Shown: piece after piece, positions 2,625 through 64,000 of the stretch
Numbering within the stretch: the stretch's first letter is position 1
Layout of the letters: every line of letters starts with the position of its first letter
Assembly: GCA_002429485.1 (NCBI GenBank)
Contig: DIZX01000016.1
Span: 14,889 to 78,888, forward strand
From: Patescibacteria group bacterium UBA6017
GTDB lineage: Bacteria; Patescibacteriota; Saccharimonadia; UBA4664
Length of the DNA: 64,000 nt
Reading direction: 5' to 3'
Notes under the pieces: model-generated
Told to the model about the DNA's origin: nothing
The model's database searches: none
The model's input: only the letters and a program-made list of their open reading frames with translations
Translations under genes and position numbers: made by a program

Positions 2625-4409
2625 ATGACCGGCGAGACGAGAACTCCGGACCTTCACCTCTGGTCCGATGAACCGGCAGTAACAGATTTACTTTCCTTCA
2701 GCGCGATCGCTGACACGGTCGTTGACGCCCTCTTCGACGAGAACCTCAATCCTGTGGCGCTTGGCATTTCTGGCGCCTGGGGCAGTGGCAAGACCACCGT
2801 ACTCAACCTGATCGACCAGCGCATCAACGCTCGATCTACAGATCAGCAGACAATCGTTGTGGTCCGCGCCGACCCGTGGCGCTATGACCCGACCAAGGGC
2901 CCGAAGGAGAGCCTGATTGTTGCCGTACTGACGGCACTGCAGGGCGAATTTAAGGGCTCAGATGCGGCCCAGAAGTCCGCCGGTGAGGCGCTCAAGAGGC
3001 TTGCGAAGCGGGTCAACTGGTCGAAAGCCATCAAGATGGCAGCGACCACGGCCCTAACCGCGCAACTTCCTTCGCTGGATGCAGTTATGGGCTTGGTCAG
3101 TGACGAGCCAGAAACGCTCGGTTCCGAGAAGGGCATGGACCAGTTCCGCGAGGAGTTCGAGGCGCTCCTAAAAGAAGAGGCGCTCGCCCACGTCATGCAA
3201 GTGGTCGTCCTGGTGGACGATCTAGACCGCTGCTTGCCAGAAACCGTCGTCGAGACGCTAGAAGCCATCCGGTTGTTCTTGTCGGCGGAGAACATGTCAT
3301 TCGTCATCGCCGCGGATGAGGCCCGAGTTGCAGAGGCGATCCAGCAAAAGCTGCAGATGCCCGACCCGAGCGACGGCACGGAGAGCATTGCCAGCCTTTA
3401 CTTGCACAAGATTGTGCAGACGACGGTGCCGTTGCCAGCCCTCAGCTACTTCGATACTCGCGCCTACCTTTTCTTGCTGCTCGCCCGAATGCAGGTTGAA
3501 ACGGATGTGTTTGGCGCGCTGGTTACCTCGTGCGACGTTCTTCGTATCGACGCCGGAAGCCTTGACGACCTCGCGCTACCAGAGGGTATTGATCTCTCGT
3601 CTCCTATGGCCACAGCCTCAAGACTCACGCCTATTCTCTACGAAAAGTTCCAGGGCAATCCTCGACGCATCAAGCGCTTCATGAACGACCTATATGTTCG
3701 ACAGTCCGTGGCCGCGAGACGGGGTCACAAGCTAGAGCCCGACGCCATCGCCAAGTTGATGGTGATCGAGCGGCTATTCCCGGCTGACTTCGGCGTCCTA
3801 ATGGACTGGCTCGCGTCCGGCAATCTGCGCGGCAAACTAGATGCGCTGCAATTATTCACGAAGGGGGAGCAGCGCGAGAAGGGAAAAGCCGAAGAAACCG
3901 AATTTTCCGGCACGATGTTGCGCTGGGCCAAGCTCCCACCCGAATTCGATACGGCTATGGTCTCGGGATATCTGACACTGGCGGCTGCGTTCCAGGGCCG
4001 TCTCCTAGTAGATGAGTCGCTGTCAGAGTCTCTGCGCGACCTCGCCGCTGCACTGACCTCGAGTTCGCAGGTCGAACGCAGTTCAGTGAAGGACGGTGAG
4101 ATTAAGGCGCTCCCGCCCGGAGACGTCGCGGAGCTGCTCGCCCACTTAGGTAGACGCATGCGCGACGACTCTTCGATCCAGCTCCCGACGGTGAACGCGA
4201 TCGTATCGATCGCTACCCTGCACCCTAGCGAGTTGGGTCGAGCTCAGCGCGCACTGTTGATGTTGCCTGGCAACGATGTTCGGTCATCCAGTGTCCTTAT
4301 CTTCAAAGACCTGACCGCCGACTACGATGATGTGCTCGAGAGCTGGTCGAAGAGCTCGGACGCCACGACGAAGCGGGCGATCTTGTCCGTGCGCAGCAGG
4401 AAGGCCTGA
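2625..4409 (+). CDS. qatA: KAP-family P-loop NTPase, first gene of a Qat-type defense operon (QatA-like).
   Basis: Walker A GISGAWGSGKTT close to the N-terminus. Walker B-like VVVLVDDLDRC. Size of 594 aa. It is followed, with start/stop overlaps, by a Gly-rich protein, a QueC-like protein and a TatD-like protein. Confidence 0.75.
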   Translation: MTGETRTPDLHLWSDEPAVTDLLSFSAIADTVVDALFDENLNPVALGISGAWGSGKTTVLNLIDQRINARSTDQQTIVVVRADPWRYDPTKGPKESLIVAVLTALQGEFKGSDAAQKSAGEALKRLAKRVNWSKAIKMAATTALTAQLPSLDAVMGLVSDEPETLGSEKGMDQFREEFEALLKEEALAHVMQVVVLVDDLDRCLPETVVETLEAIRLFLSAENMSFVIAADEARVAEAIQQKLQMPDPSDGTESIASLYLHKIVQTTVPLPALSYFDTRAYLFLLLARMQVETDVFGALVTSCDVLRIDAGSLDDLALPEGIDLSSPMATASRLTPILYEKFQGNPRRIKRFMNDLYVRQSVAARRGHKLEPDAIAKLMVIERLFPADFGVLMDWLASGNLRGKLDALQLFTKGEQREKGKAEETEFSGTMLRWAKLPPEFDTAMVSGYLTLAAAFQGRLLVDESLSESLRDLAAALTSSSQVERSSVKDGEIKALPPGDVAELLAHLGRRMRDDSSIQLPTVNAIVSIATLHPSELGRAQRALLMLPGNDVRSSSVLIFKDLTADYDDVLESWSKSSDATTKRAILSVRSRKA

Positions 4410-16286: not shown

Positions 16287-18425
16287 CTAGGCTTCCTCTT
16301 GCACACCCAACCGCTTCGATAATCGCGCCAACGGCGCCGGCGCCCACCAGTTGAGGTGACCCAGCAGACGCATAGCTGAGGGCACTAGCACCAGCCGCAC
16401 GATTGTCGCATCGATGGCTACCGCCACGCCCAAGCCTACGCCCACTTGCTGGATAATCCCGATCTTGCCGGTGGCAAACAGGCCGATTACTACCACCAGC
16501 ATCAGTGCCGCCGAGGTGATGATGCTGGCCGTTCGCTCCACGCCTACCGCCACGGCGTTGGCATTATTGCCCGTGCGGTCGTACTCTTCTTTGACCCGCG
16601 ATAGCAGGAATAATTCGTAATCCATCGCCAGCCCAAATGCGATTGCGAAGATCAGTACCGGCTGCGTGGCGTCGATGCTGCCATTTGACACAAAACCCAG
16701 CTGACTCGTGAGGTGGCCGTCCTGAAAGATCCACACCAAGACGCCGAATGCGGCCGACAGCGACAGGACGTTTAAGATGACAGCCTTGAATGGGATCACC
16801 ACACTCCCGAGCATGATGAACAGCAGGGTGGAGGTGGTTACCAGAATTATCAGACCCGCCAATGGCAGCTTGGACCCCAGCCCGTCCAGCAGGTCAACCA
16901 ACTCCGCGCTGGTGCCTCCCGAATACACCGTCCAACCCTCAGGTATAGCTACGGTCCTTGCATTGCGCACTACCTGCTGGGCTGCGGGCGACTGACTCTT
17001 ATATTGCTCACTAAAAGCCACGTTGTAGAAGTTGCCCTCGGCGCCGAGAATTTTCTGCTTGTCTAATCCGTCGACTTTGCTGAAACGAGCCAAATATTCG
17101 GATAACTTACGTTGATTGTCCGGCAAATTCGCCGGGCCATCTGCCTCAATTACTAGAGTCAATTTGGTGTCGCCGGCCCCGGCAAAGTTGGTCGCTAGCT
17201 GGTCGTTTACCTGTCGGCTCGAATAGCTGGCGGGCACCGTCTTGGCATCGGGGGTGGTAAATATGGCGGAGTAAAAGGGGATACCCAGCACTACCAGCAG
17301 CTCCACCGCCAGTCCAAACATCAGGAGCGGGCGGCGCATGATGAAGTGGCTGTAGCGGTACCAGAATCCATGCTCGGCCGGGCGAGACAGGCTTTTGTGC
17401 AGCCCCGGTAGCGCCAAGTCGTTAATATGATGGCCAATCAATCGCAAGGCCGCCGGCAGTACCGTGAGCGCCAGTATGGCCGTGGCCGCCACCGCTGCCG
17501 CGCCGCCCATGCCCATGCTGCGCAGGAAGCCTTGTGGGAACACCAAGAGCCCCAGCAGACACAGGACCACGGTGAGGGCGCTAAAGAACACCGTCCGGCC
17601 CGCCGTGCGCAAAGTAGTGGCAATTGCCTTATTGGTAGTGGCTCCGCCCGCCAGCTCTTCCCGGAACCGGCTCACAATAAACAAGCTGTAATCAATCGCC
17701 AGTCCCAATCCCATGAGGGTAATAATATTGATGGCATACACCGACACCGTGGTGTAATTCGTGATTATTCTTACCAGCAAAAATGCCACTAGAATACTCA
17801 ACCCTCCCAGGCCCAGGGGTACCAACGCGGCCACGACACTCCGAAATACCAGCACCAACAAAATCGCCAAGATCGGAAACGACAGCATTTCGGCTTTGGC
17901 CAAATCCTTGGTAACCTGGGCGCTGATCTGGTCATTGACCGCCACGAATCCTCCATACTCTACCGCCACTCCCGTCCCGCTCTTGATCTGGTTTTGGAGA
18001 TTATGGAAGGTGGTCACTTTTTCGGCCTGTGTGCCGTTCAGGGCGACCGTCGCGAAGGTCTGCCTGCCGCTAGTCGATACAAAATCCGGTGCTCCAGTTG
18101 AGAAATAGCTGGTTACGTTCGCCACTCCAGACGTAGACTTGGCCGTATCGAGTTGACGCCTCACGAATTGAGCCGTGCTTGGGTCGCTAGTGATGCTTCG
18201 GTCGCTGGCGGAAAACAAAATTACCAGATCGGACCGCTGATTCTTGAACTCACTCGACAGTGTTGACAGGGCTTTTTCGGATGAAGAGTTCGGGTCGCCA
18301 TAGCCGCCGCTCGATAGCCGGGAGAATACCGTCAGCCCGTAGCTGGCAGCTATCACGGCCAGGATTAGCCCGGCGGTTAGGACCCAGCCCGGCCGGCGAT
18401 TAGTTATGTGTGTCCATCGGTTCAT
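16287..18425 (-). CDS. MMPL-family (RND superfamily) membrane transporter.
   Basis: 712 aa. Two sets of six TM helices separated by large periplasmic domains. Typical MMPL length and topology. Paralog of 54274-56457. Confidence 0.8.
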   Translation of the reverse strand: MNRWTHITNRRPGWVLTAGLILAVIAASYGLTVFSRLSSGGYGDPNSSSEKALSTLSSEFKNQRSDLVILFSASDRSITSDPSTAQFVRRQLDTAKSTSGVANVTSYFSTGAPDFVSTSGRQTFATVALNGTQAEKVTTFHNLQNQIKSGTGVAVEYGGFVAVNDQISAQVTKDLAKAEMLSFPILAILLVLVFRSVVAALVPLGLGGLSILVAFLLVRIITNYTTVSVYAINIITLMGLGLAIDYSLFIVSRFREELAGGATTNKAIATTLRTAGRTVFFSALTVVLCLLGLLVFPQGFLRSMGMGGAAAVAATAILALTVLPAALRLIGHHINDLALPGLHKSLSRPAEHGFWYRYSHFIMRRPLLMFGLAVELLVVLGIPFYSAIFTTPDAKTVPASYSSRQVNDQLATNFAGAGDTKLTLVIEADGPANLPDNQRKLSEYLARFSKVDGLDKQKILGAEGNFYNVAFSEQYKSQSPAAQQVVRNARTVAIPEGWTVYSGGTSAELVDLLDGLGSKLPLAGLIILVTTSTLLFIMLGSVVIPFKAVILNVLSLSAAFGVLVWIFQDGHLTSQLGFVSNGSIDATQPVLIFAIAFGLAMDYELFLLSRVKEEYDRTGNNANAVAVGVERTASIITSAALMLVVVIGLFATGKIGIIQQVGVGLGVAVAIDATIVRLVLVPSAMRLLGHLNWWAPAPLARLSKRLGVQEEA

Positions 18426-54273: not shown

Positions 54274-56457
54274 CTACCGTCGCTTGTGCGAAAGTTTTGA
54301 TGGCCACCAGATGTTTCGCCCAATATCGTAAGACATTGCCGGGACCAGTAGTGAGCGCACGATTAGGGTGTCAAGCAGAACGCCGAACGATACAATGAAG
54401 GCAAGTTGTACCAAGAATAAGATCGGTATAATCGCCAGCGCCGCGAAGGTTGCCGCCAGTACTAGCCCCGCCGAGGTGATCACGCTGCCGGTAACACCCA
54501 GGCCGCGCAAAATGCCTGGCCTAGTCCCGATCTTGAATGATTCTTCCCGCACGCGAGTCATGAGGAAAATATTGTAATCAACACCTAGCGCCACCAGGAA
54601 AACGAAGCCAAATAGCGGCACAGTGGGGTCTGCCCCAGGGAAGTTGAAGACGTGATTGAAGACCAGCGCTGAAACTCCCATTGTGGCTGCAAAACTAATT
54701 ACTACGCTCAAAATCAGCAGTATCGGCGCCAGTACCGACCTCAAGAGCAACATTAATATTAGGAGAATCACTACCAGCACTATCGGGATTATCTTATAAA
54801 GATCGGCGCGAGCAGTGTCGTTACTATCAATGGCAATGGCGGTCACTCCTCCTACCGTCACGGCTGGGTCGGTGCCCGGCAATGATCTCCTCAAATTTCG
54901 GACTACCTGCTCGGCGGAGGCCGAGTCGGCTTGATCAATTAGGGTCGCATTGATGAGCACTTTGCCATCGACTACCCTTGGATCTGACCGAGTTAAGGCC
55001 GTTGGATTTCCGGAGCCGGCGTAGATGTAGGCCGCGCCAATTCCGGTAGTCGCCTGCACCGCCTTAAGTGTTTCCTGCGCCTTGGCCTGGTCGGCAATAA
55101 TTACTACCGGGCTCCCAGAGCCGGCATCGAAGTGATCAGCTAGTACTTTCTGACCATCAACCGCCTCGGACTTCGACAGAATCAGCGCGGTTTGCGAAAC
55201 GCCGGACGCCTTGAGCTGCGGCAACCCGAGTATGCAGCCAGCAAGTACCGCTAGCGCAAATAACCAGGTTAGTCGTGGCCTACGGGCGATCAGGCTACCG
55301 ATTCTACGCCATAGCCCGGGAGCCCCCTCGAGACCCGAAACTTCATTGTCTGTATCGGCGTGCGGGTGCTCGGGATTAACCTTGGGAGTCATGGGCCAAT
55401 AAGCTTTGCGGCCGAAAGCGTACAGCAGTGCCGGCAGCAAAGTCATGGCAGCGAGAAATGAGAACAATATGCCGATCGCAGCAATTGGGCCTAGGCTGCG
55501 GTTCGAATTCAGATCAGAGAAGAGCAGGCAAAGGAGGGCTAAGATCACCGTGGCAGCCGAGGCGGCAATCGGCTCAATCGAATTCTTTATGGCATGAATT
55601 ATCGCGACCCATTTATTCTCCACATGCTCGAGAGCCTCGCGATAACGAGCGGATAGCAGCAATGAGTAGTCCGTGGCAGCGCCGATCACCAAGATAGACA
55701 AAATACCCTGACTTTGCCCGTTAAGCTTGATCCATCCCCAACTAGCCATTGCGTACACTAGCAAGATTGCGGCAGTGAGGGCGAACATGGCCGTAAACAG
55801 CACTACGAATGGTAAAACGATCGAACGATAAACCAGCAATAGGATTATAAAGACGGCTCCGACCGCGACGAGCAGAAGGATGCCGTCAATCCCGCCAAAG
55901 GCAGTTATTAGGTCAGCCGAAAGTCCGGCCGGCCCGGTAACATAGCTGGCTGTACCTTCCGGAGCAGTATCCTTTGCGGTCCGGCGTAGTTCCTTCACAA
56001 CCGCACCGACTTTCTCGGTATTTGAGATAGGAACAATATATTCCACTGCTTTGCCATCCGCCGAAGGGATTGGCCCCGCTACAGCCGTGGACTGTCCGGA
56101 AGCTGGAGATTCGACTCCGCTAACAGTCCCGAGGCTAATACCTAGCTTTGCGAACTGTGATAACTGGGCGGAAGTAATCCGGGCGGGCGACTCGACGACT
56201 ACTATTGCCGGTATTGATTTAGAGGCTGCAAATTTAGCTTGGACTGCCTGAACCTTGGTGCTTTCAGCACTGGCCGGCAGGAACGAAGCTTGGTCATTAC
56301 TCGATACGGAGGACAACTTGCCGAAGGTTGGACCGCCTATTCCGGCAGCAATGAACCAGGCCACGATGATGACTGCGGGCAACAAGATTCTCGCCCATCG
56401 GGACGGCTGGCGTTCAGATGACGATTTGCTACGATTTGAATCTGAAGTTGTGGTCAT
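54274..56457 (-). CDS. MMPL-family (RND superfamily) membrane transporter, paralog 2.
   Basis: 727 aa, 12 TM helices with two large loops. Similar to 16287-18425. Confidence 0.8.
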   Translation of the reverse strand: MTTTSDSNRSKSSSERQPSRWARILLPAVIIVAWFIAAGIGGPTFGKLSSVSSNDQASFLPASAESTKVQAVQAKFAASKSIPAIVVVESPARITSAQLSQFAKLGISLGTVSGVESPASGQSTAVAGPIPSADGKAVEYIVPISNTEKVGAVVKELRRTAKDTAPEGTASYVTGPAGLSADLITAFGGIDGILLLVAVGAVFIILLLVYRSIVLPFVVLFTAMFALTAAILLVYAMASWGWIKLNGQSQGILSILVIGAATDYSLLLSARYREALEHVENKWVAIIHAIKNSIEPIAASAATVILALLCLLFSDLNSNRSLGPIAAIGILFSFLAAMTLLPALLYAFGRKAYWPMTPKVNPEHPHADTDNEVSGLEGAPGLWRRIGSLIARRPRLTWLFALAVLAGCILGLPQLKASGVSQTALILSKSEAVDGQKVLADHFDAGSGSPVVIIADQAKAQETLKAVQATTGIGAAYIYAGSGNPTALTRSDPRVVDGKVLINATLIDQADSASAEQVVRNLRRSLPGTDPAVTVGGVTAIAIDSNDTARADLYKIIPIVLVVILLILMLLLRSVLAPILLILSVVISFAATMGVSALVFNHVFNFPGADPTVPLFGFVFLVALGVDYNIFLMTRVREESFKIGTRPGILRGLGVTGSVITSAGLVLAATFAALAIIPILFLVQLAFIVSFGVLLDTLIVRSLLVPAMSYDIGRNIWWPSKLSHKRR

Positions 56458-56716: not shown

Positions 56717-57550
56717 TTATAATGCTCTACCACAGCCACTACTCGGTACTGACCCGGTTGGCGAAACAGCGAGTGCCAAGCTCACCGCCCCGAGGACATA
56801 GACATTAAACGGCCAGCTCTGGATCTTGCCGGTTTGGCGGTTTGCGCCCTGGCCAAATGCCTCGGTGAGTACGTGAGACTCGGGCACGCCCTGCCGGTGC
56901 AAGTTTCCTGCCATTCCTTTCATGAACGGCGGCGGGCCGCAGATGTAGAACGCCTTAACCACTAACATGCCCCTTACCACTCGGTCAATCAGCTCCGGCG
57001 ATATGAACCCGGTCGTCACCAGTTGGCCCTGCAGCCTATCTGTCGCCCCTTGACCAATCACGAACACCACTCGGAAATTAGGGTTCACACTGCTGAGCCG
57101 TTTAAGCTCATCAACGAAGGGAATATCGTCTTGATTTCGGCAACTATATACGAGCGTGACAGTGTTTGAGGCCTCAATCTTAGTGAGATACCGAATCATG
57201 CTGATGAACGGCGTGATACCGATGCCTCCAGCCAGAAATACTGCCTCGGAGTCCCGAGCCTGGTCGAATACAAATCCGCCAAACGGACCGCGGACCGCTA
57301 CATCATCACCGGGCATAATCCGGCTCAGAGCACCGGTGTAGTGACCACCATTGCGGATACTAAATTGGAGCAGCCCCGCTTCGGTTGGTGAACTAACTAT
57401 CGAAAAGCACCGAGCAGCCGAGGGGCGAGCCCCCTGATAGAAATTAATCGCCGCATACTGTCCCGGCACAAACGCAAATGGACGTTCATCATCGCCAAGA
57501 CGGAGAGTCAACAGACTCGTCGATGGTGTCAGGGCCTCATTTGAGACCAC
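56717..57550 (-). CDS. FNR-like FAD/NAD(P)-binding oxidoreductase.
   Basis: FAD motif RCFSIVSSP. GPFGGF. NAD(P) motif VFLAGGIGITPFISM. Confidence 0.65.
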   Translation of the reverse strand: MVSNEALTPSTSLLTLRLGDDERPFAFVPGQYAAINFYQGARPSAARCFSIVSSPTEAGLLQFSIRNGGHYTGALSRIMPGDDVAVRGPFGGFVFDQARDSEAVFLAGGIGITPFISMIRYLTKIEASNTVTLVYSCRNQDDIPFVDELKRLSSVNPNFRVVFVIGQGATDRLQGQLVTTGFISPELIDRVVRGMLVVKAFYICGPPPFMKGMAGNLHRQGVPESHVLTEAFGQGANRQTGKIQSWPFNVYVLGAVSLALAVSPTGSVPSSGCGRAL

Positions 57551-57770
57551 CGTGTACTTGTGTATATGTCGGACATTATATCATCCAAGCCGGTAGGGTT
57601 TGAGGCTCTCAGACTCTAATTGAACCAATAATATGTGTTTATAATGGCTGGGTTTTGACGTTGAGAATCCGTTTTTTACTTAAGCCAACAGATATGCAGC
57701 GTCTTGCTAAATCCAGATAGCAACAGCATAATAATCTCGTCCTAGTAGTTCTGAAGTTCTTTGAAACGGA

Positions 57771-59237
57771 GTGCTGATGCCCAAGAGTCACGACCCGCGG
57801 ATCGCGGCCGAGCTCGCTCGTCCCGGTTCCCTAGCAATGCCAGGTTTTCTCGCAATGGTCGCTGCCTACGAAGCGCTCGCAGCCGGCATCGACGGCGGAG
57901 TGAAGTTGGCTGGGCATTTCAACTCCCCAGACAAACAATCGGTCCTGCGCCTGTACGCCGACATGGCGATCACGGCAGCATCGCCGTGGAACACGTTCAT
58001 CGGCAACCCCGCTGCTCAGAGGGAGGCGTTCCGCACCAGCGGTGGCTCACTTATCAACGGGCTCGTCAACTTCTGGACCGACGCCAGGCACCACAATGGG
58101 TTCCCGCTTCTTTCGGACGGATCGTTCGAAGTTGGCGTGAACAGCGGTGACACTCCGGGGGATGTGGTCTTCAGCAATGGGCTCATCGAGCTCATTCTCT
58201 ACCGCCCCACAACCAAGAAGGTCCGAGCGGTTCCGCTGCTCGCGGTGCCTCCACCCATCGGCAAGCTCCCCATCATGGACCTTACCAAGGGGAAGAGCTG
58301 GATCCAGTTCATGGTGAACTCCGGCTACTCGGTTTACGCGATTAGCTGGGTCAACCCTGACAACTCGATGGGCGACATGTCCTTCGAGGACTACATCCTT
58401 AAGGGGGTAGTCGCAGCCTTGGAGGCCATCCCGGACCCCAAAGTCAACGTGGCTGCACTTTGCCTCGGCGGGACCATGGCCGCCATCACGGCAGCACTCA
58501 AGGGCAAGGTTAACACCGCCTCATTCTTCGTTACCTACACCGACTTCAGTGGCAACACCGGGCCGATGGGAGCGATGATCACCGACAAGGCTCTGGGCAA
58601 GATGAGCGCCAAGAACCCCTACAACGAGGTCGTAACGGCGAAGCAGATGAGAGATGCCTTTCGGGCTCTGAACATGCTTGAGCTCTTCTGGGGTCCGGCT
58701 GTCCAGCAATGGCTCCTCGGCCAGAAGCCCGGCCCATCAGCCCTCCTCGACTGGAATGCTGACGGAACCAATCTCTTCGCCAAGATGCACCTCCAGTACT
58801 TGAGGGCGTGCTATCTCGACAATCTCTTCGCGAAGCGCAAGCTCGTGATCGGCGGCCAGACCATCGGTATTTCGGACATCGACGTCGACACCTACTGGGT
58901 TGGCGGCGAGCTCGATCACATCGTGAAGTGGGGCAGCTGCTTCTTCGGGGCCTCTCAAACGAGCGGCGATCGTCGGCTGGTCCTCGCCCCTCGTGGGCAT
59001 CTCGGCTCTATCGTCGACCCACCCTCGGACAGGGCGTCTTACCTGGTAGGGCCATCCACTTACACCGATGACGCGTCGTGGAAGGCGAACGCGGTCAAGG
59101 TCTCGGGATCATCTTGGTGGGCTGATCACGCAAACTGGCTGGAGCCACGCTCCGGACCACTCGTTGATGCACCTATCCTGGACCCGGCCGACATTCTGTA
59201 CGCCGCCCCCGGCAAGAATGTCTTGGTCAAGGCCTAG
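57771..59237 (+). CDS. PhaC-like alpha/beta hydrolase (polyhydroxyalkanoate-synthase-type lipase box).
   Basis: Lipase box with Cys nucleophile ALCLGGTMAA (G-x-C-x-G-G). Alpha/beta-hydrolase length of 488 aa. The N-terminal start is uncertain. Confidence 0.5.
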   Translation: MLMPKSHDPRIAAELARPGSLAMPGFLAMVAAYEALAAGIDGGVKLAGHFNSPDKQSVLRLYADMAITAASPWNTFIGNPAAQREAFRTSGGSLINGLVNFWTDARHHNGFPLLSDGSFEVGVNSGDTPGDVVFSNGLIELILYRPTTKKVRAVPLLAVPPPIGKLPIMDLTKGKSWIQFMVNSGYSVYAISWVNPDNSMGDMSFEDYILKGVVAALEAIPDPKVNVAALCLGGTMAAITAALKGKVNTASFFVTYTDFSGNTGPMGAMITDKALGKMSAKNPYNEVVTAKQMRDAFRALNMLELFWGPAVQQWLLGQKPGPSALLDWNADGTNLFAKMHLQYLRACYLDNLFAKRKLVIGGQTIGISDIDVDTYWVGGELDHIVKWGSCFFGASQTSGDRRLVLAPRGHLGSIVDPPSDRASYLVGPSTYTDDASWKANAVKVSGSSWWADHANWLEPRSGPLVDAPILDPADILYAAPGKNVLVKA

Positions 59238-59401
59238 GCAACACAGTTACACCCATGGGGTGAGTGGGGTCCGCCCGGACTCCACTCACCCCATCTTTCT
59301 TTGGTACGAGATCACAGGCGATGATAAACATAAGTGTTATAATCAACAAAATTCTTAATTGCCGCCGAGGAGAGACCAGCCCTTCGGTAGCCAGGGAAAA
59401 T

Positions 59402-60811
59402 ATGAATCAGCATACCTCTTCGTCCAGGCCCATCCGCTCTGCCCTGCAGCACCTCATGATCCGCGACGTTCCGTCGTACGCCAATCGGTTCGCTTACTCG
59501 CTCGGTTTCCTTTCAGCTATTTCATTCCTTCTACTGGTGATCACGGGTATCATCATGGCCGCCGCGGGGCCGCACTGGTGGATCGCCAGTCCCTTGGGCC
59601 AGTATTTGCGCAGCTTCCATCTCTGGGCTACCCAAGCATTTGTGGTGTTTATCTTGCTGCATTTGACGATCGTTCTTCTGACCTCGGGGTATAAAGGCGC
59701 TCGTAAGTTCACCTGGGTGCTGGGCGTTTTCATGTTCTTGTTTGCCTTGGCCGAAGCCGAATTTGGCTATGTTTTGCGCGGTGATTTCTCGTCGCAGTAT
59801 CGCAGCCTGCAGGGAGCTGACCTGTACAACGGCAGCGGCATCGGGTGGGTGCTTAATAATCTCAATACCGGCCAAGTCATGGGCATCCATATCGCCGTTT
59901 TGCCGTTGACGTTAATTGCCCTCATACTTGCCCACTACTTCTTGGTCCGTGTTCTGGGCATTGGTAAACCCTCACCGTCCGCCGACGCCTACCCCGTAGT
60001 CAAGGCCAACCACGCCCTCTTGTTTTGGCGGGGCGGAACGGTGGTTGCGCTCGTAGCTTTGCTGGCGGTCGTGTTCCCTTCCCCGTACTTGTCACCGCTG
60101 ACGATCAGTAAGATTGCAAAGGATGACCCGACGCTGATTTCACAGACTCTCGTCAAGGAATTTGACGGTTCGTCGGACACAGCAACCTACGTAAACAATA
60201 TCGCCCCCTACACTTTTAACTCTCAGAGCGTATTCATCCAAACCCCGTACAATCAGCTTAAGGCGACTCAGTCCACCCCCAACCAGCTGACCTTGTTCCA
60301 GGCGGAGCCAGCCGAGCTGCAAAAAACACAACTTGAAGCTGCCACGGCATTTTATGCCAGCGACCCGGTAAGCAAGGTCCTTCCCAAGGGCAATTACGCA
60401 ATCGCAGTCGTCGATAGTCTTACTAATATGGCCCAAAGCGGCCTGTACGAAGCGGCCCTGCGCGATAATAACGGCACGGGATACCAGACAACCTACGTAG
60501 TTCGGTTCCTCGCCGATACGGGAATCCCCGACGAAACCGCAACCAGCTTAAGGATGACGACCGATCAATACGGTATGGTGCGCGAGGAAGCCAACAGCCC
60601 GACACCGGGCGCGTGGTGGCTTGCACCCATCGGGCTGCTCAATCACACCGTTTTGGCCAAAGATGAGGACAATGGAGACCGCGACGGCGCCATCATTATC
60701 GGTACCAGCTTGCTCCTGTTGCTCGCCTTCCCTTTCATTCCGTTCGTCAACCGTCTACCCGAACTTCTTCGAATCTATAAGCTGATCTGGCTCAAGCCAC
60801 GCTCGAAGTAA
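59402..60811 (+). CDS. Cytochrome-b-like di-haem membrane domain fused to a large extracytoplasmic domain.
   Basis: TM helices with conserved His pairs (FHLWATQAFVVFILLHLTIVL, GIHIAVLPLTLIALILAHYF). Start placed at the ATG at 59402 (MNQHTSS...). Confidence 0.5.
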   Translation: MNQHTSSSRPIRSALQHLMIRDVPSYANRFAYSLGFLSAISFLLLVITGIIMAAAGPHWWIASPLGQYLRSFHLWATQAFVVFILLHLTIVLLTSGYKGARKFTWVLGVFMFLFALAEAEFGYVLRGDFSSQYRSLQGADLYNGSGIGWVLNNLNTGQVMGIHIAVLPLTLIALILAHYFLVRVLGIGKPSPSADAYPVVKANHALLFWRGGTVVALVALLAVVFPSPYLSPLTISKIAKDDPTLISQTLVKEFDGSSDTATYVNNIAPYTFNSQSVFIQTPYNQLKATQSTPNQLTLFQAEPAELQKTQLEAATAFYASDPVSKVLPKGNYAIAVVDSLTNMAQSGLYEAALRDNNGTGYQTTYVVRFLADTGIPDETATSLRMTTDQYGMVREEANSPTPGAWWLAPIGLLNHTVLAKDEDNGDRDGAIIIGTSLLLLLAFPFIPFVNRLPELLRIYKLIWLKPRSK

Positions 60812-60896
60812 TCGCTGACGCCCCAACGATATTGGACGCGAACATATCTACGCTCATTCTCATCCAATTCTAAGTAAAGGGGAGTACATTTGCATC

Positions 60897-61337
60897 ATGA
60901 AAAAACTCTTACTAGGTGCATTTGTAGTCGGAAGCTATATCTTATATAGCATCCATCAGCGAGGCGACGGCTCATCTGCCGTAGTGCCGCCATCGATTCA
61001 ATCGACACCACCGGCATCCAGCTCAAACTCGACTCCAACCAGTACCGTTGCCTATAAAGACGGCCAGTATACCGGGCAGGCCGCTGATGCCTATTACGGC
61101 AACATTCAGGTGAAGGTCACCATTTCGGGGGGCAAGCTGTCTAATGTCGAATTCTTGCAGTACCCGAATGACCGCTCGACCTCGGTGCGTATCAACTCAC
61201 AGGCTATGCCCTACCTCAAGCAAGAGGCCATACAGGCTCAAAGCGCGAGCGTAGATGGTGTTTCGGGTGCCACCGACACCAGCCAGGCCTTCATTCAATC
61301 ACTAACGTCGGCCCTCAAGACCGCTCAATCAGCTTGA
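60897..61337 (+). CDS. FMN-binding domain protein (membrane-anchored, NqrC/RnfG-like module).
   Basis: N-terminal TM helix. YKDGQYTG...VDGVSGATDTSQAF, the FMN_bind motif whose Thr is normally flavinylated. Confidence 0.65.
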   Translation: MKKLLLGAFVVGSYILYSIHQRGDGSSAVVPPSIQSTPPASSSNSTPTSTVAYKDGQYTGQAADAYYGNIQVKVTISGGKLSNVEFLQYPNDRSTSVRINSQAMPYLKQEAIQAQSASVDGVSGATDTSQAFIQSLTSALKTAQSA

Positions 61338-62077
61338 AACAGACCCGCCAATTGATGGGCATGCCGGTGACCCTCATTATCGAAGATAATATTGCTTCAC
61401 CCGATATATTTGATCAAGCCTACGCTTATTTTTCCTCGGTCGATGAGACATATAGCCCCTATAAATCGTCCAGCGAGGTGTCGCGGATAAATGCCGGGTT
61501 GGCCGAATCCAATCGTAGCCCTGGGATGCAGGAAATAATGCGGTTATGCAAGGACACCTCAACGGCCACCAACGGCTATTTTGACGCCTGGCACCAAGGC
61601 AAGTTTGACCCGTCGGGGCTCGTTAAGGGCTGGGCGATAAATAATTCAGCCAAGCTGCTCCGCGGCCTCGGCTGTCGCAATTATTATGTTGAAGCGGGGG
61701 GTGATATTCAGGTAAGCGGCTTAAATGCGGCCGGTGAGCCCTGGCAAATCGGCATCCGCAATCCGTTTGACCGCCAGCAGAACGTCAAGGTCTTATCGGT
61801 AACCACACAGGGTATAGCCACATCCGGACTCTATATCCGGGGGGAGCATATCTATAATCCGCTCAATGATGGGGCGCCTTTGAAAGACGTAGCCTCTTTG
61901 ACGGTGATCGGCCCAAATATTTACGAGGCCGACCGATTCGCGACCGCCGCCTTTGCGATGGGCGCCGGTGGTATCCGGTTTATTGATGCACTGCCGGGCT
62001 TTGAGGCGTATATGATAGATAATGCCGGCGTGGCTACCCTCACCCGGGGTTTTGAAAGGTACGTGAAGAGCGAATGA
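61334..62077 (+). CDS. ApbE-family FAD:protein FMN transferase.
   Basis: MGMPVTLII N-terminus. FDPSGLVKGWA. C-terminal metal motif (ATSGLY...DRFATAAF). Overlaps both flanking genes. Confidence 0.7.
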   Translation: MKQTRQLMGMPVTLIIEDNIASPDIFDQAYAYFSSVDETYSPYKSSSEVSRINAGLAESNRSPGMQEIMRLCKDTSTATNGYFDAWHQGKFDPSGLVKGWAINNSAKLLRGLGCRNYYVEAGGDIQVSGLNAAGEPWQIGIRNPFDRQQNVKVLSVTTQGIATSGLYIRGEHIYNPLNDGAPLKDVASLTVIGPNIYEADRFATAAFAMGAGGIRFIDALPGFEAYMIDNAGVATLTRGFERYVKSE

Positions 62078-63591
62078 TGAATTATATCGACAGTCGACTT
62101 GACCGTATCACTATGTACCGCTTATTGGTGCTATACCTGGAGGTGCTGCTGGGTGCCGCTATGCTGCTGAGCGCCCTGGGGTTCCTGTCGTTCAACCCGC
62201 TGTCCATTGCCTTTTCCGCCGGGTTTCTAGTCGGAATCTGCCTGCTTGCGAACCGGATTTTTGCTTCGGTATTTAATGCGCCCGCCAACCCCGAGTCATC
62301 ACTGATTACTGCCCTGATTCTGGCGTTGATTATCACCCCGCCGGCCAGTATTCAAGGCTACGTCTTTTTGACGGCTGCCGCCGGGCTCGCGATCGCCTCA
62401 AAGTATCTCCTGACAATCCGCGGACGGCACATCTTCAATCCGGCTGCTGTCGCGGTGGCGCTTACCGCAATCGCGGCCGGTGAGTCTGCCAGCTGGTGGG
62501 TGGGCAGCGCAGTGCTTGCCCCGGTAGTGATCATTGGCGGCCTCATGCTGATTCGAAAAGTCCGGCGCGGCCAGATGGTGGCATCCTTTGTTCTTACCGC
62601 AATCGCCGCAACGGCCGCATTCGCCCTACTGGGCCATGGTGATATTGTCGGCGCCATCCAAAAAACCTTCCTGCAATCATCTCTGCTCTTCTTGGCCTTC
62701 GTAATGCTTACCGAACCCCTAACGTCGCCCGCGCGTCTGCATCAACAGCGTTGGTACGGCATGCTCACCGGCCTCCTTTTCCCGCCCCAAGTCCATATCC
62801 TTTCCCTCTATTCCACGCCCGAGCTAGTGCTATTGGTCGGTAACGTTTACGCCTATTTCGTTAATCCCAAGGTTAAGTTGGTACCTAGACTATTGAAGAA
62901 AATTGCCTGGGGTCCAAATACGGCTGATTTCGTCTTTGCTCTCGATCAACCGATTACATATGAGCCAGGCCAATATATGGAGTTTACTTTGCCGCACGAG
63001 AAGCCAGACCAACGGGGGAGTCGGCGCTACTTCACCGTTGCCTCTTCCCCGACCGAAGATACCCTCAGGCTAGGCGTAAAATTTTATCCCCAAGGCAGTA
63101 CCTACAAGCGGGCCCTCCTCACGATGACCAAGGCCACTCCCTTTGCCGCAGCACAGTTGGGTGGCGACTTCGTGCTCCCCGACGACCCTACCCGCAAACT
63201 TGCCTTCATCGCCGGGGGTATTGGCGTCACGCCGTTTAGAAGCATGATTAAATATCTGACCGATACCAACGACCCCAGATCTGTCATTATGCTGTATTCC
63301 GAACGCACAGCGTCCGATCTGGCTTACATTGACGTATTTGCGGCCGCTCAGACCAATCCCGAGACCAAGATCGTCTACGCAATTACCGATGCAGCCGCTG
63401 CCGTGCCCGCCGGGATGCATTCCGGGTCGATTACGCCAGCCTTCATCCAGGCCGAAATACCCGATTACCATGAACGATTATTCTACATATCTGGCCCTCA
63501 CACCATGGTGACTGCTATGAAGGCTGCCTTGAGCGCCCTGGGCGTACCGGATCATAATATCAAGATTGATTTCTTCCCAGGCTACGCCTAA
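62074..63591 (+). CDS. Polytopic membrane domain fused to an FNR-like FAD/NAD(P)-binding reductase domain.
   Basis: About 250 aa with 6-8 TM helices, then RRYFTVASSP (FAD), GGDFVLP, and IAGGIGVTPFRSM (NAD). Paralogous to 56717-57550. Confidence 0.65.
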   Translation: MMNYIDSRLDRITMYRLLVLYLEVLLGAAMLLSALGFLSFNPLSIAFSAGFLVGICLLANRIFASVFNAPANPESSLITALILALIITPPASIQGYVFLTAAAGLAIASKYLLTIRGRHIFNPAAVAVALTAIAAGESASWWVGSAVLAPVVIIGGLMLIRKVRRGQMVASFVLTAIAATAAFALLGHGDIVGAIQKTFLQSSLLFLAFVMLTEPLTSPARLHQQRWYGMLTGLLFPPQVHILSLYSTPELVLLVGNVYAYFVNPKVKLVPRLLKKIAWGPNTADFVFALDQPITYEPGQYMEFTLPHEKPDQRGSRRYFTVASSPTEDTLRLGVKFYPQGSTYKRALLTMTKATPFAAAQLGGDFVLPDDPTRKLAFIAGGIGVTPFRSMIKYLTDTNDPRSVIMLYSERTASDLAYIDVFAAAQTNPETKIVYAITDAAAAVPAGMHSGSITPAFIQAEIPDYHERLFYISGPHTMVTAMKAALSALGVPDHNIKIDFFPGYA

Positions 63592-63694: not shown

Positions 63695-64000
63695 ATGACT
63701 ATTGTAGGAGGAATTCCTGGTAGTAACTCTCAACTCGACGGCTCATCTGCGTTGCCAGTACCTTGGGGTATCGATCGAGGCCTTCCCCATCAGGATACGC
63801 TTCCCGGAGTCTTCCCCGAACCGGTGAAAACGTCCTGCCCGTGTGACGGAGGAGTCCACGACGTCAGCTATGGAACCCGTCAAGAGGGTGAATGCCAGCT
63901 GCACATCGTGCACACTCGTATTCCTCTGGTGGCGGGTCGGTCTGGAAAGGTGGAGCCGTTCACTCAGCAAGAGCTGCTCACGAAGGCGGGCAGAGAAATC
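63695..64000 (+). CDS. 5' part of a hypothetical gene running off the end of the window.
   Basis: Strong SD AAGGAGG lies 6 nt before the ATG at 63695. The frame stays open to the window end (MTIVGGIPGSNSQLDGSSALPVPWGIDRGLPHQD...). Confidence 0.4.
   Translation, partial: MTIVGGIPGSNSQLDGSSALPVPWGIDRGLPHQDTLPGVFPEPVKTSCPCDGGVHDVSYGTRQEGECQLHIVHTRIPLVAGRSGKVEPFTQQELLTKAGREI

Follow-up and report, generated by a model that had tools for sequence, protein, structure and literature searches.

The window analysed here is a stretch of 64,000 nt on contig DIZX01000016.1 of Patescibacteria group bacterium UBA6017, a member of the Saccharimonadia. Near its end, between positions 56717 and 63591, it carries a cluster of redox genes. 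Four of these encode a two-haem cytochrome b-like protein, a flavin mononucleotide (FMN)-binding protein of the FMN_bind family, the flavin transferase ApbE, and a fusion of an NqrB/RnfD-like membrane domain with an FNR-type reductase. The last three genes, hereafter the trio, correspond to a published flavinylation system, and the cytochrome gene precedes them. All six open reading frames (ORFs) that a preliminary description had assigned to the cluster are found in the ORF list where it had placed them, and hidden Markov model searches with Pfam and NCBIfam bear out the domain assignment of each. The features of the locus are the following.

56717..57550, minus strand: FNR-family reductase (FNR2), 277 aa, with FAD_binding_6 and NAD_binding_1; placed outside the module
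57777..59237 (ORF 57771-59237), plus strand: N-terminally short PhaC-like alpha/beta hydrolase, 486 aa, with PhaC_N and Abhydrolase_1; placed outside the module
59255..59294, plus strand: perfect 18-bp terminator-like hairpin followed by CTTTCTTT, folding free energy -38.7 kcal/mol
59335..59343, plus strand: putative extended -10 promoter element TGTTATAAT, read from the sequence
59344-59401: conserved 5' leader found by alignment of relatives (L004 7271-7328; L093 5815-5871; L095 4256-4360)
59402..60811, plus strand: predicted two-haem cytochrome b6-like membrane protein, 469 aa (PF13631, Cytochrom_B_N_2; PF00033, Cytochrome_B)
60897..61337, plus strand: FMN_bind protein (NqrC/RnfG-like), 146 aa (PF04205, E = 4.6e-11)
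61334..62077, plus strand: short ApbE flavin transferase, 247 aa (PF02424, E = 1e-37)
62077..63591, plus strand: fusion protein of 504 aa, with an NqrB/RnfD-like polytopic domain (approximately aa 1-262) and a cytoplasmic FNR-type flavin adenine dinucleotide (FAD)/NAD(P) reductase (PF03116, PF00970 and PF00175)

The FMN_bind protein has an N-terminal helix, a Ser/Thr/Pro-rich linker and the flavinylation motif DGVSGAT. The flavinylation threonine, whose absence the preliminary description had named as grounds for giving up its proposal, is present (Thr126). The [ST]G[AS][ST] core is conserved in 75 of 78 members of this FMN_bind family, and an N-terminal helix is present in 68. In 66 of those 68 the helix is flanked by more positive charge on its N side, and because of this charge bias the protein is predicted to lie with its N-terminus inside and its domain outside the cell. 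The N-terminal anchor MKKLLLGAFVVGSYILYS contains no Cys and therefore no lipobox. This membrane helix may or may not score as a signal peptide; the ApbE protein has no signal peptide, lipobox or membrane helix. ApbE starts either at TTG 61334 (247 aa) or at ATG 61355 (240 aa) and contains the motifs GGD122, TSG163 and D200xxxT204-A.

The fusion protein, for which an alternative ATG lies at 62074, matches PF03116 with 37.8 bits (cut-off 27.7; E = 1.9e-9) and PF00175 with E = 5.2e-12. Its motifs RYFT317 and GGIGVTP380 are of the RxYS/T and GGIGxTP types. Beside the membrane domain, Pfam finds only FAD_binding_6 and NAD_binding_1 and no Fer2 (2Fe-2S) domain. The profile of the membrane domain aligns to RnfD (8ahx_D) over the C-terminal half only (E = 7e-4). 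The segment that joins the FNPA helix to the next one offers just a short invariant G-x-SASWW stretch and no [ST]GA[ST] motif. The invariant SASWW was considered as a degenerate flavinylation site and rejected, as it does not fit [ST]GA[ST]. On this alignment, the flavinylation loop of RnfD is lost from the membrane domain of the fusion protein, in agreement with Huang et al. (2024; mSystems, PMC11334425).

The trio has the composition of the NQR/RNF-like system. In the passages of Méheust et al. (2021; eLife, PMC8238504) that define it, this is a flavinylation cluster in which one protein combines an NqrB/RnfD domain (PF03116) at its N-terminus with an NqrF-like NAD-binding domain (PF00175) at its C-terminus; candidate phyla radiation (CPR) bacteria figure among its main reported hosts. 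In the window, both domains occur in one protein, the genes for ApbE and FMN_bind lie immediately upstream, and the extracytosolic partner carries the ApbE motif Dxx[ST]GA[TS] (DGVSGAT). The passages of Huang et al. (2024) on the system describe a two-subunit complex modelled from Ktedonobacter racemifer, in which the membrane domain is likewise without the flavinylation threonine of NqrB/RnfD and the covalent flavin of the small subunit may reach a non-covalent flavin site in the membrane subunit. An NqrB/NqrF-like fusion protein has also been remarked on in a soil Saccharibacteria genome (Starr et al. 2018). Judged by domains, motifs and gene order, the trio is an ordinary example of this system, which genome mining had already brought to light. 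The gene order is shared with dozens of genomes. The best 120 homologues of the fusion protein are all approximately 500 aa long, contain both domains and share at least 56% identity with it. Among the species representatives of GTDB there are at least 80 full-length matches, and among the matches listed the order FMN_bind, ApbE, fusion gene occurs in approximately 66 of 80 loci. The 80 listed loci belong to the Patescibacteria, Chloroflexota and Actinomycetota (44-59% identity), and the best of the listed matches (59%) are Saccharibacteria/Saccharimonadales. Two named homologues at approximately 63% identity carry the label Dormibacteraeota.

The window shares with Na+-NQR (NqrABCDEF) and RNF (RnfABCDGE) a homologous B/D-like domain, C/G-like FMN protein, F-like FAD/NAD module and ApbE maturation. 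It differs from them in having no A, D or E subunits (RnfA/B/C/E), no Fer2 domain and no covalent-FMN site in the B/D-like domain. Genes for NqrD/E (RnfA/E) or NqrA (RnfC/B) are found neither among the six genes nor within 10 kb of them in L001, L004, L093 and L095. The predicted electron flow is one-way in the window, whereas it is semicircular and ion-pumping in Na+-NQR and RNF. The preliminary description had likened the combination of an NAD(P)H reductase, an ApbE-matured outward-facing flavoprotein and a b-type cytochrome to a partial NQR/RNF module rather than to a standard respiratory complex. This likeness holds, as the trio agrees with the published definition.

The cytochrome b-like protein has four core helices, a fifth helix, an outer helical domain of approximately 200 aa and a C-terminal helix, according to its hydropathy and its predicted model. 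His73/His87 and His163/His178 are invariant in 30 sequences, with spacings of 14 and 15. A profile built from 30 homologues aligns residues 13-186 to cytochrome b6 (7r0w_I; E = 6.6e-20), the His ligands of the two being in register. Foldseek also matches cytochrome b chains, with E-values down to 1e-6 and an overall template modelling score of approximately 0.36. The protein is predicted to bind two haems through b6-type bis-His sites, and the di-haem protein with a large outside domain that had been proposed from the letters is recovered with both ligand pairs aligned. The N-terminal four-helix core is homologous to that of cytochrome b6/QcrB in the b6f and bc complexes, and both bis-His sites have the 14/15 spacing of the b6 type. 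Unlike those proteins, the window cytochrome has no Cys for haem ci, no PEWY motif (P[EDV]W[YF]) and no C-terminal helices of the subunit IV type, and has the outer domain instead. Because the protein contains no cysteine, and hence no CxxCH, it has neither a haem ci site nor a c-type haem. No Rieske or cytochrome c1/f genes are found near the cytochrome b gene at the window locus or in L004, L093 and L095.

The outer domain belongs to no Pfam family, and nothing in the PDB matches its partly confident model in structure. It has only 111 relatives among 1.84 billion representative proteins, according to a full HMMER scan. When the domains of ten of these relatives are checked, five are fused to a cytochrome b core and four are stand-alone proteins of approximately 320-335 aa with no Pfam domain. 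The stand-alone proteins (P0392, P0404, P0406 and P0419) could reflect a division of the protein into two chains, as between b6 and subunit IV. All named relatives of the cytochrome (57-76% identity) belong to the Saccharibacteria, Saccharimonadia or Saccharimonadales. In the relevant passages of Huang et al. (2024), the NQR/RNF-like system has "only two apparent subunits", whereas the window and three relatives add a leading gene for a two-haem cytochrome b. This cytochrome b, with its novel outer domain and its place at the head of the trio operon, is the new element here.

The ORF of the cytochrome b gene as first read (59264-60811) is over-extended by 46 codons and runs through the terminator-like hairpin. 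The start is the ATG at 59402, which is supported by 30 of 30 aligned homologues and by the gene calls of public contigs. With this start, 164 nt separate the PhaC stop codon from the ATG, and this junction is therefore not short. Downstream of the cytochrome b gene, the junctions consist of an 85-nt spacer to the FMN_bind gene and two successive 4-nt overlaps. The short or overlapping junctions claimed for five genes in the same direction thus stand for the last four genes and fall for the PhaC/cytochrome b pair. The hairpin at 59255-59294 has a z-score of -4.89, and none of 200 shuffled sequences is equally stable. It is predicted to end the PhaC transcript and to mark the upstream boundary of the operon.

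Downstream of the hairpin, CATAAGTGnTATAaT and the 5' leader are kept 5' of the cytochrome b gene in L004, L093 and L095 despite differing upstream genes. The generic sigma-70 scan did not list the -10 element at 59335-59343, so the promoter call rests on conservation. Within the leader, TAATAAT follows closely on the -10 element and CGGTCGCCAAGGA precedes ATG 59402, the ribosome-binding site being AGGGA/AAGGA; the leader also contains a small GC hairpin. The 85-nt spacer that separates the cytochrome b gene from the FMN_bind gene contains no predicted terminator. Because the promoter and leader are conserved, the gap upstream is 164 nt long and bears a terminator, and the junctions downstream are short or overlapping, the cytochrome b, FMN_bind, ApbE and fusion genes are most likely transcribed together from a promoter of their own, as a four-gene operon spanning 59335-63591.

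A structured 5' leader and regulation by Fur were both considered and rejected. RNAalifold with four species gives the leader a small hairpin (-6.85 kcal/mol), in which the covariation term is 0 and a single pair is compensatory; this is too weak. Rfam at gathering thresholds finds only two tRNAs in the whole window. The best Fur-box match upstream of the cytochrome b gene is 13/19 and not significant; 19 positions of the window score 13/19 or more, and the upstream site sits in an AT-rich promoter. On the other side of the operon, a gene at 63695-64000 on the plus strand begins 103 nt past the fusion gene and has a strong AAGGAGG ribosome-binding site. On public contigs it encodes 166 aa with no Pfam match. 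This gene is present in the same species (L001 and L002) and does not occur 3' of the operon in L004, L093 and L095.

The four-gene block is intact in the window, L004/L005, L093 and L095, with 76-81% identity in the fusion protein. The gene directly upstream of the block is different in each: PhaC in the window, rhodanese in L004, an MMPL-family transporter in L093 and enolase in L095. In L004 the block follows immediately on genes for Fur, glutaredoxin and rhodanese. That four species keep these four genes together, each beside another upstream neighbour, puts their clustering far beyond chance. The conclusion drawn is that the cytochrome serves an independent function and joined the operon in a single clade, which probably lies within the Saccharimonadia. 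A direct functional partnership between the cytochrome and the trio is the somewhat favoured view.

Two other kinds of flavinylation-linked system invite comparison. The Listeria system of flavin-based extracellular electron transfer (FLEET), which Light and colleagues are said to have described in 2018, reportedly consists of Ndh2, EetA/B, the lipoprotein PplA with two FMN_bind domains and the lipoprotein ApbE FmnB. Compared by these features rather than by sequence, both systems share the concept of cytoplasmic NAD(P)H feeding an ApbE-flavinylated protein at the outer face. They differ in that the window has an FNR fusion instead of Ndh2, and one FMN_bind domain with a membrane anchor instead of a two-domain lipoprotein. 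Among the six genes there is no Pyr_redox/Ndh2-type domain, no EetA/B-like gene and no lipoprotein signal on ApbE. The FLEET-like resemblance suggested in the preliminary description is apt as an analogy and does not extend to the parts, given the missing Ndh2-type domain, the single FMN_bind domain, the missing lipobox and an ApbE that is not a lipoprotein. In the two-haem systems with Ferric_reduct or PepSY proteins, a b-type transmembrane protein is likewise encoded with an ApbE and FMN_bind pair. The window differs from these in the unrelated, b6-like fold of its cytochrome and in having a separate NAD(P)H-driven flavin route in the same operon. Systems with Ferric_reduct-type genes are also present in two of the comparison loci. 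In L093 (15515-17281), a second short ApbE gene lies beside a Ferric_reduct-type gene fused to FAD_binding_8/NAD_binding_1. In L087 (4738-7808), a second short ApbE gene lies beside a Ferric_reduct-type gene, a separate FNR gene and a DUF2127 gene. Because of these second ApbE genes, both genomes appear to hold at least two flavinylation-linked membrane redox systems.

The reading that best accounts for the whole locus is electron export by the trio, joined by a clade-specific cytochrome, with PhaC and FNR2 as an insertion beside them. Its probability is put at roughly 0.6. By homology, the fusion protein would oxidise NAD(P)H at its cytoplasmic, FAD-binding FNR domain. Electrons would then pass through the NqrB/RnfD-like membrane domain, which is without the covalent-FMN threonine of NqrB/RnfD and, by analogy with the published AlphaFold model, may hold a non-covalent flavin. 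From there they would reach the FMN that ApbE is expected, from the motifs observed, to attach to Thr126 of the FMN_bind protein. The outcome would be one-way export of electrons to the outer face. The cytochrome most likely exchanges electrons with the flavoprotein at that face. As an acceptor or relay, it could return electrons to the membrane or hand them to a substrate outside. Alternatively, it could supply membrane-derived electrons as a second input; the direction of flow is a matter that sequence cannot decide.

Several observations weigh against this reading. The cytochrome b gene stands alone among unrelated genes in L088-L092, at lower identity. It lies 5 kb from the trio in L087 and on the opposite strand in L032, and L096 (66% identity in the fusion protein) has the trio without the cytochrome. 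Since most members of the cytochrome family are encoded away from the trio, the protein has an independent role, and its position next to the trio could be incidental. The predicted models of the cytochrome are moderately confident (predicted local distance difference test values of 69 and 64). No experimental study of any NQR/RNF-like system was found in the literature, and the cofactors, the direction of flow and the acceptor are all inferred. Finally, an ApbE without an export signal and a substrate predicted to lie outside are not explained together by the simple picture.

This last point concerns the whole family. Among L006-L085, the ApbE ORF is 235-300 aa long in 65 of 71 family loci (median 248 aa), and only one of these 65 proteins has a hydrophobic stretch in its first 40 aa. 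Only about five residues of the ApbE protein precede the first conserved strand, and an in-frame stop codon further upstream excludes an extension long enough for an export signal. Cytoplasmic ApbEs are known for cytoplasmic fumarate reductases. It is possible that flavinylation takes place before the small FMN_bind protein is exported post-translationally, that ApbE is exported in an unconventional way, or that the topology predicted for the FMN_bind protein is wrong. A frameshift fusion of FMN_bind and ApbE, which would carry ApbE outside, was rejected because the overlap varies among loci; in many of them the two genes are 5-20 nt apart and in different frames. The contradiction is not discussed in the passages of Méheust et al. 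(2021) or Huang et al. (2024) on the system. The former report a count of 127 genomes, from a pipeline that requires a predicted signal peptide or lipid site. Such a filter probably under-counts the NQR/RNF-like family, missing many members like that of the window. The family-wide lack of an export signal on ApbE calls into question the assumption that flavinylation occurs outside the cell. If flavinylation precedes export, the way in which such systems are recognised in genomes would change. A bolder proposal would join the flavin module and the new cytochrome b family into one stripped-down chain from NAD(P)H through flavins to haems, with ApbE flavinylating in the cytoplasm before export. 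This proposal is unlikely as a whole. If true, it would describe a minimal chain for respiration or extracellular electron transfer, built from unexpected parts in CPR bacteria that have almost no respiratory chain.

Neither the PhaC-like gene nor FNR2 occurs at this position in L004, L093 or L095, where the four-gene block is intact. In L093, where the MMPL gene is orthologous (83% identity), the MMPL and cytochrome b genes are 244 bp apart; in the window they are 2,944 bp apart, and the gap holds FNR2 and PhaC. The PhaC-like protein has the PhaC_N domain, the hydrolase fold and the Cys-Asp-His triad that characterise class I. Its triad Cys229/Asp380/His408 is invariant in an alignment with 11 homologues (12 sequences). 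Its score against TIGR01838 is 345 bits, below the curated cut-off of 622.65, and its N-terminus is approximately 85 aa shorter than that of the 573-aa relatives. It may well be an active enzyme, since the triad is intact. In the protein collection it has a single close homologue (61% identity), which lies beside an ornithine carbamoyltransferase gene and other unrelated genes. The next matches are actinobacterial-type proteins of approximately 573 aa with approximately 42% identity. The GC content of the gene is 0.606, compared with 0.551 for the window. FNR2 carries the same two types of motif as the fusion protein (RCFS47 and GGIGITP108) and a marginally hydrophobic C-terminal tail, and is 30% identical to the FNR domain of the fusion protein. 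Read from gene content and spacing, PhaC and FNR2 are an insertion of approximately 2.9 kb, specific to this species and functionally unrelated to the redox operon. The link to PhaC that gave the cluster its odd look would then be an artefact of this insertion. The window contains two genes for MMPL-family transporters, at 16287-18425 and 54274-56457, both on the minus strand. The second adjoins a MarR gene and a pair of ABC exporter genes, which in L093 are rearranged to the other side of the operon.

The preliminary description had counted both PhaC and the divergent FNR paralogue as members, in effect a six-gene redox unit in which they act with the cytochrome and flavin genes. The genes are physically adjacent, and FNR2 could feed the two-haem cytochrome from the cytoplasm as in NOX/FRE-type reductases, a parallel of architecture only. 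Set against this are the lack of any orthologue of either gene at this position in the three relatives, the terminator and promoter between PhaC and cytochrome b, the differing GC content of PhaC and the unrelated context of its sole close homologue. Comparative genomics thus appears already to have largely refuted the six-gene arrangement, which is highly improbable. A narrower functional unit deserves more weight. The cytochrome may be an autonomous membrane cytochrome of the Saccharimonadia, for example a quinol-linked or cytoplasm-fed conduit, that merely lies upstream, so that only the trio is a functional unit. The solitary cytochrome genes in most of the genomes examined (L088-L092) argue for this, as do the two subunits to which the relevant passages of Huang et al. 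(2024) confine the system and the trios that are complete without the cytochrome in approximately 66 of the 80 listed loci and in L096. Against it count a block that stays intact through four different upstream rearrangements, and a sole conserved promoter that precedes the cytochrome b gene with no terminator predicted before FMN_bind. An autonomous cytochrome is a serious but less probable alternative to partnership with the trio.

Two further proposals concern where the electrons go. In one, the operon encodes a minimal NQR-like NAD(P)H:quinone oxidoreductase, in which electrons move out through the flavins and back through haems bL/bH to a quinone on the cytoplasmic side, possibly with ion coupling. 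This would parallel the path of Na+-NQR from the FMN of NqrC back through NqrB to quinone. In its favour are also the two haem ligand pairs of the b6-like core and the strong conservation of an outer loop. A bo3 quinol oxidase is encoded by related soil Saccharibacteria, which have been proposed to scavenge quinone. However, no quinone-site motif is identified in the cytochrome, PEWY is absent, and the operon contains no ion-translocating subunit of the NqrD/E type. The path is also entirely inferential, and the quinone loop is quite improbable. In the other, the system would have a FLEET-like purpose and reduce iron for assimilation, or some other substrate, outside the cell, with the outer domain of the cytochrome facing the substrate. 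In the passages of Méheust et al. (2021) on this point, VIT1 iron transporters occur in six NQR/RNF-like clusters, and the Fur, glutaredoxin and rhodanese genes directly 5' of the block in L004 point the same way. However, the upstream genes differ in each relative, the cluster in the window contains no iron transporter, and the best Fur box is unremarkable for an AT-rich promoter. An extracellular reductase of this kind is doubtful. Electron export by the trio, with the cytochrome as a recruited partner, remains the preferred reading.

Among the CPR/Patescibacteria, which are otherwise without electron-transport chains, few membrane redox modules are widespread, and the NQR/RNF-like system appears to be one of these. 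A clade in which this module is predicted to be co-transcribed with a two-haem cytochrome provides a concrete candidate partner for it. The four operon proteins are small enough for joint expression.

At the other end of the window, a gene for a DndD-like ATPase (161-2101, E = 1.9e-52) is followed by one for a QatA-like ATPase (2625-4409, E = 7.3e-86). Both matches are below the curated cut-offs. Their presence suggests an anti-phage defence island at the start of the window.

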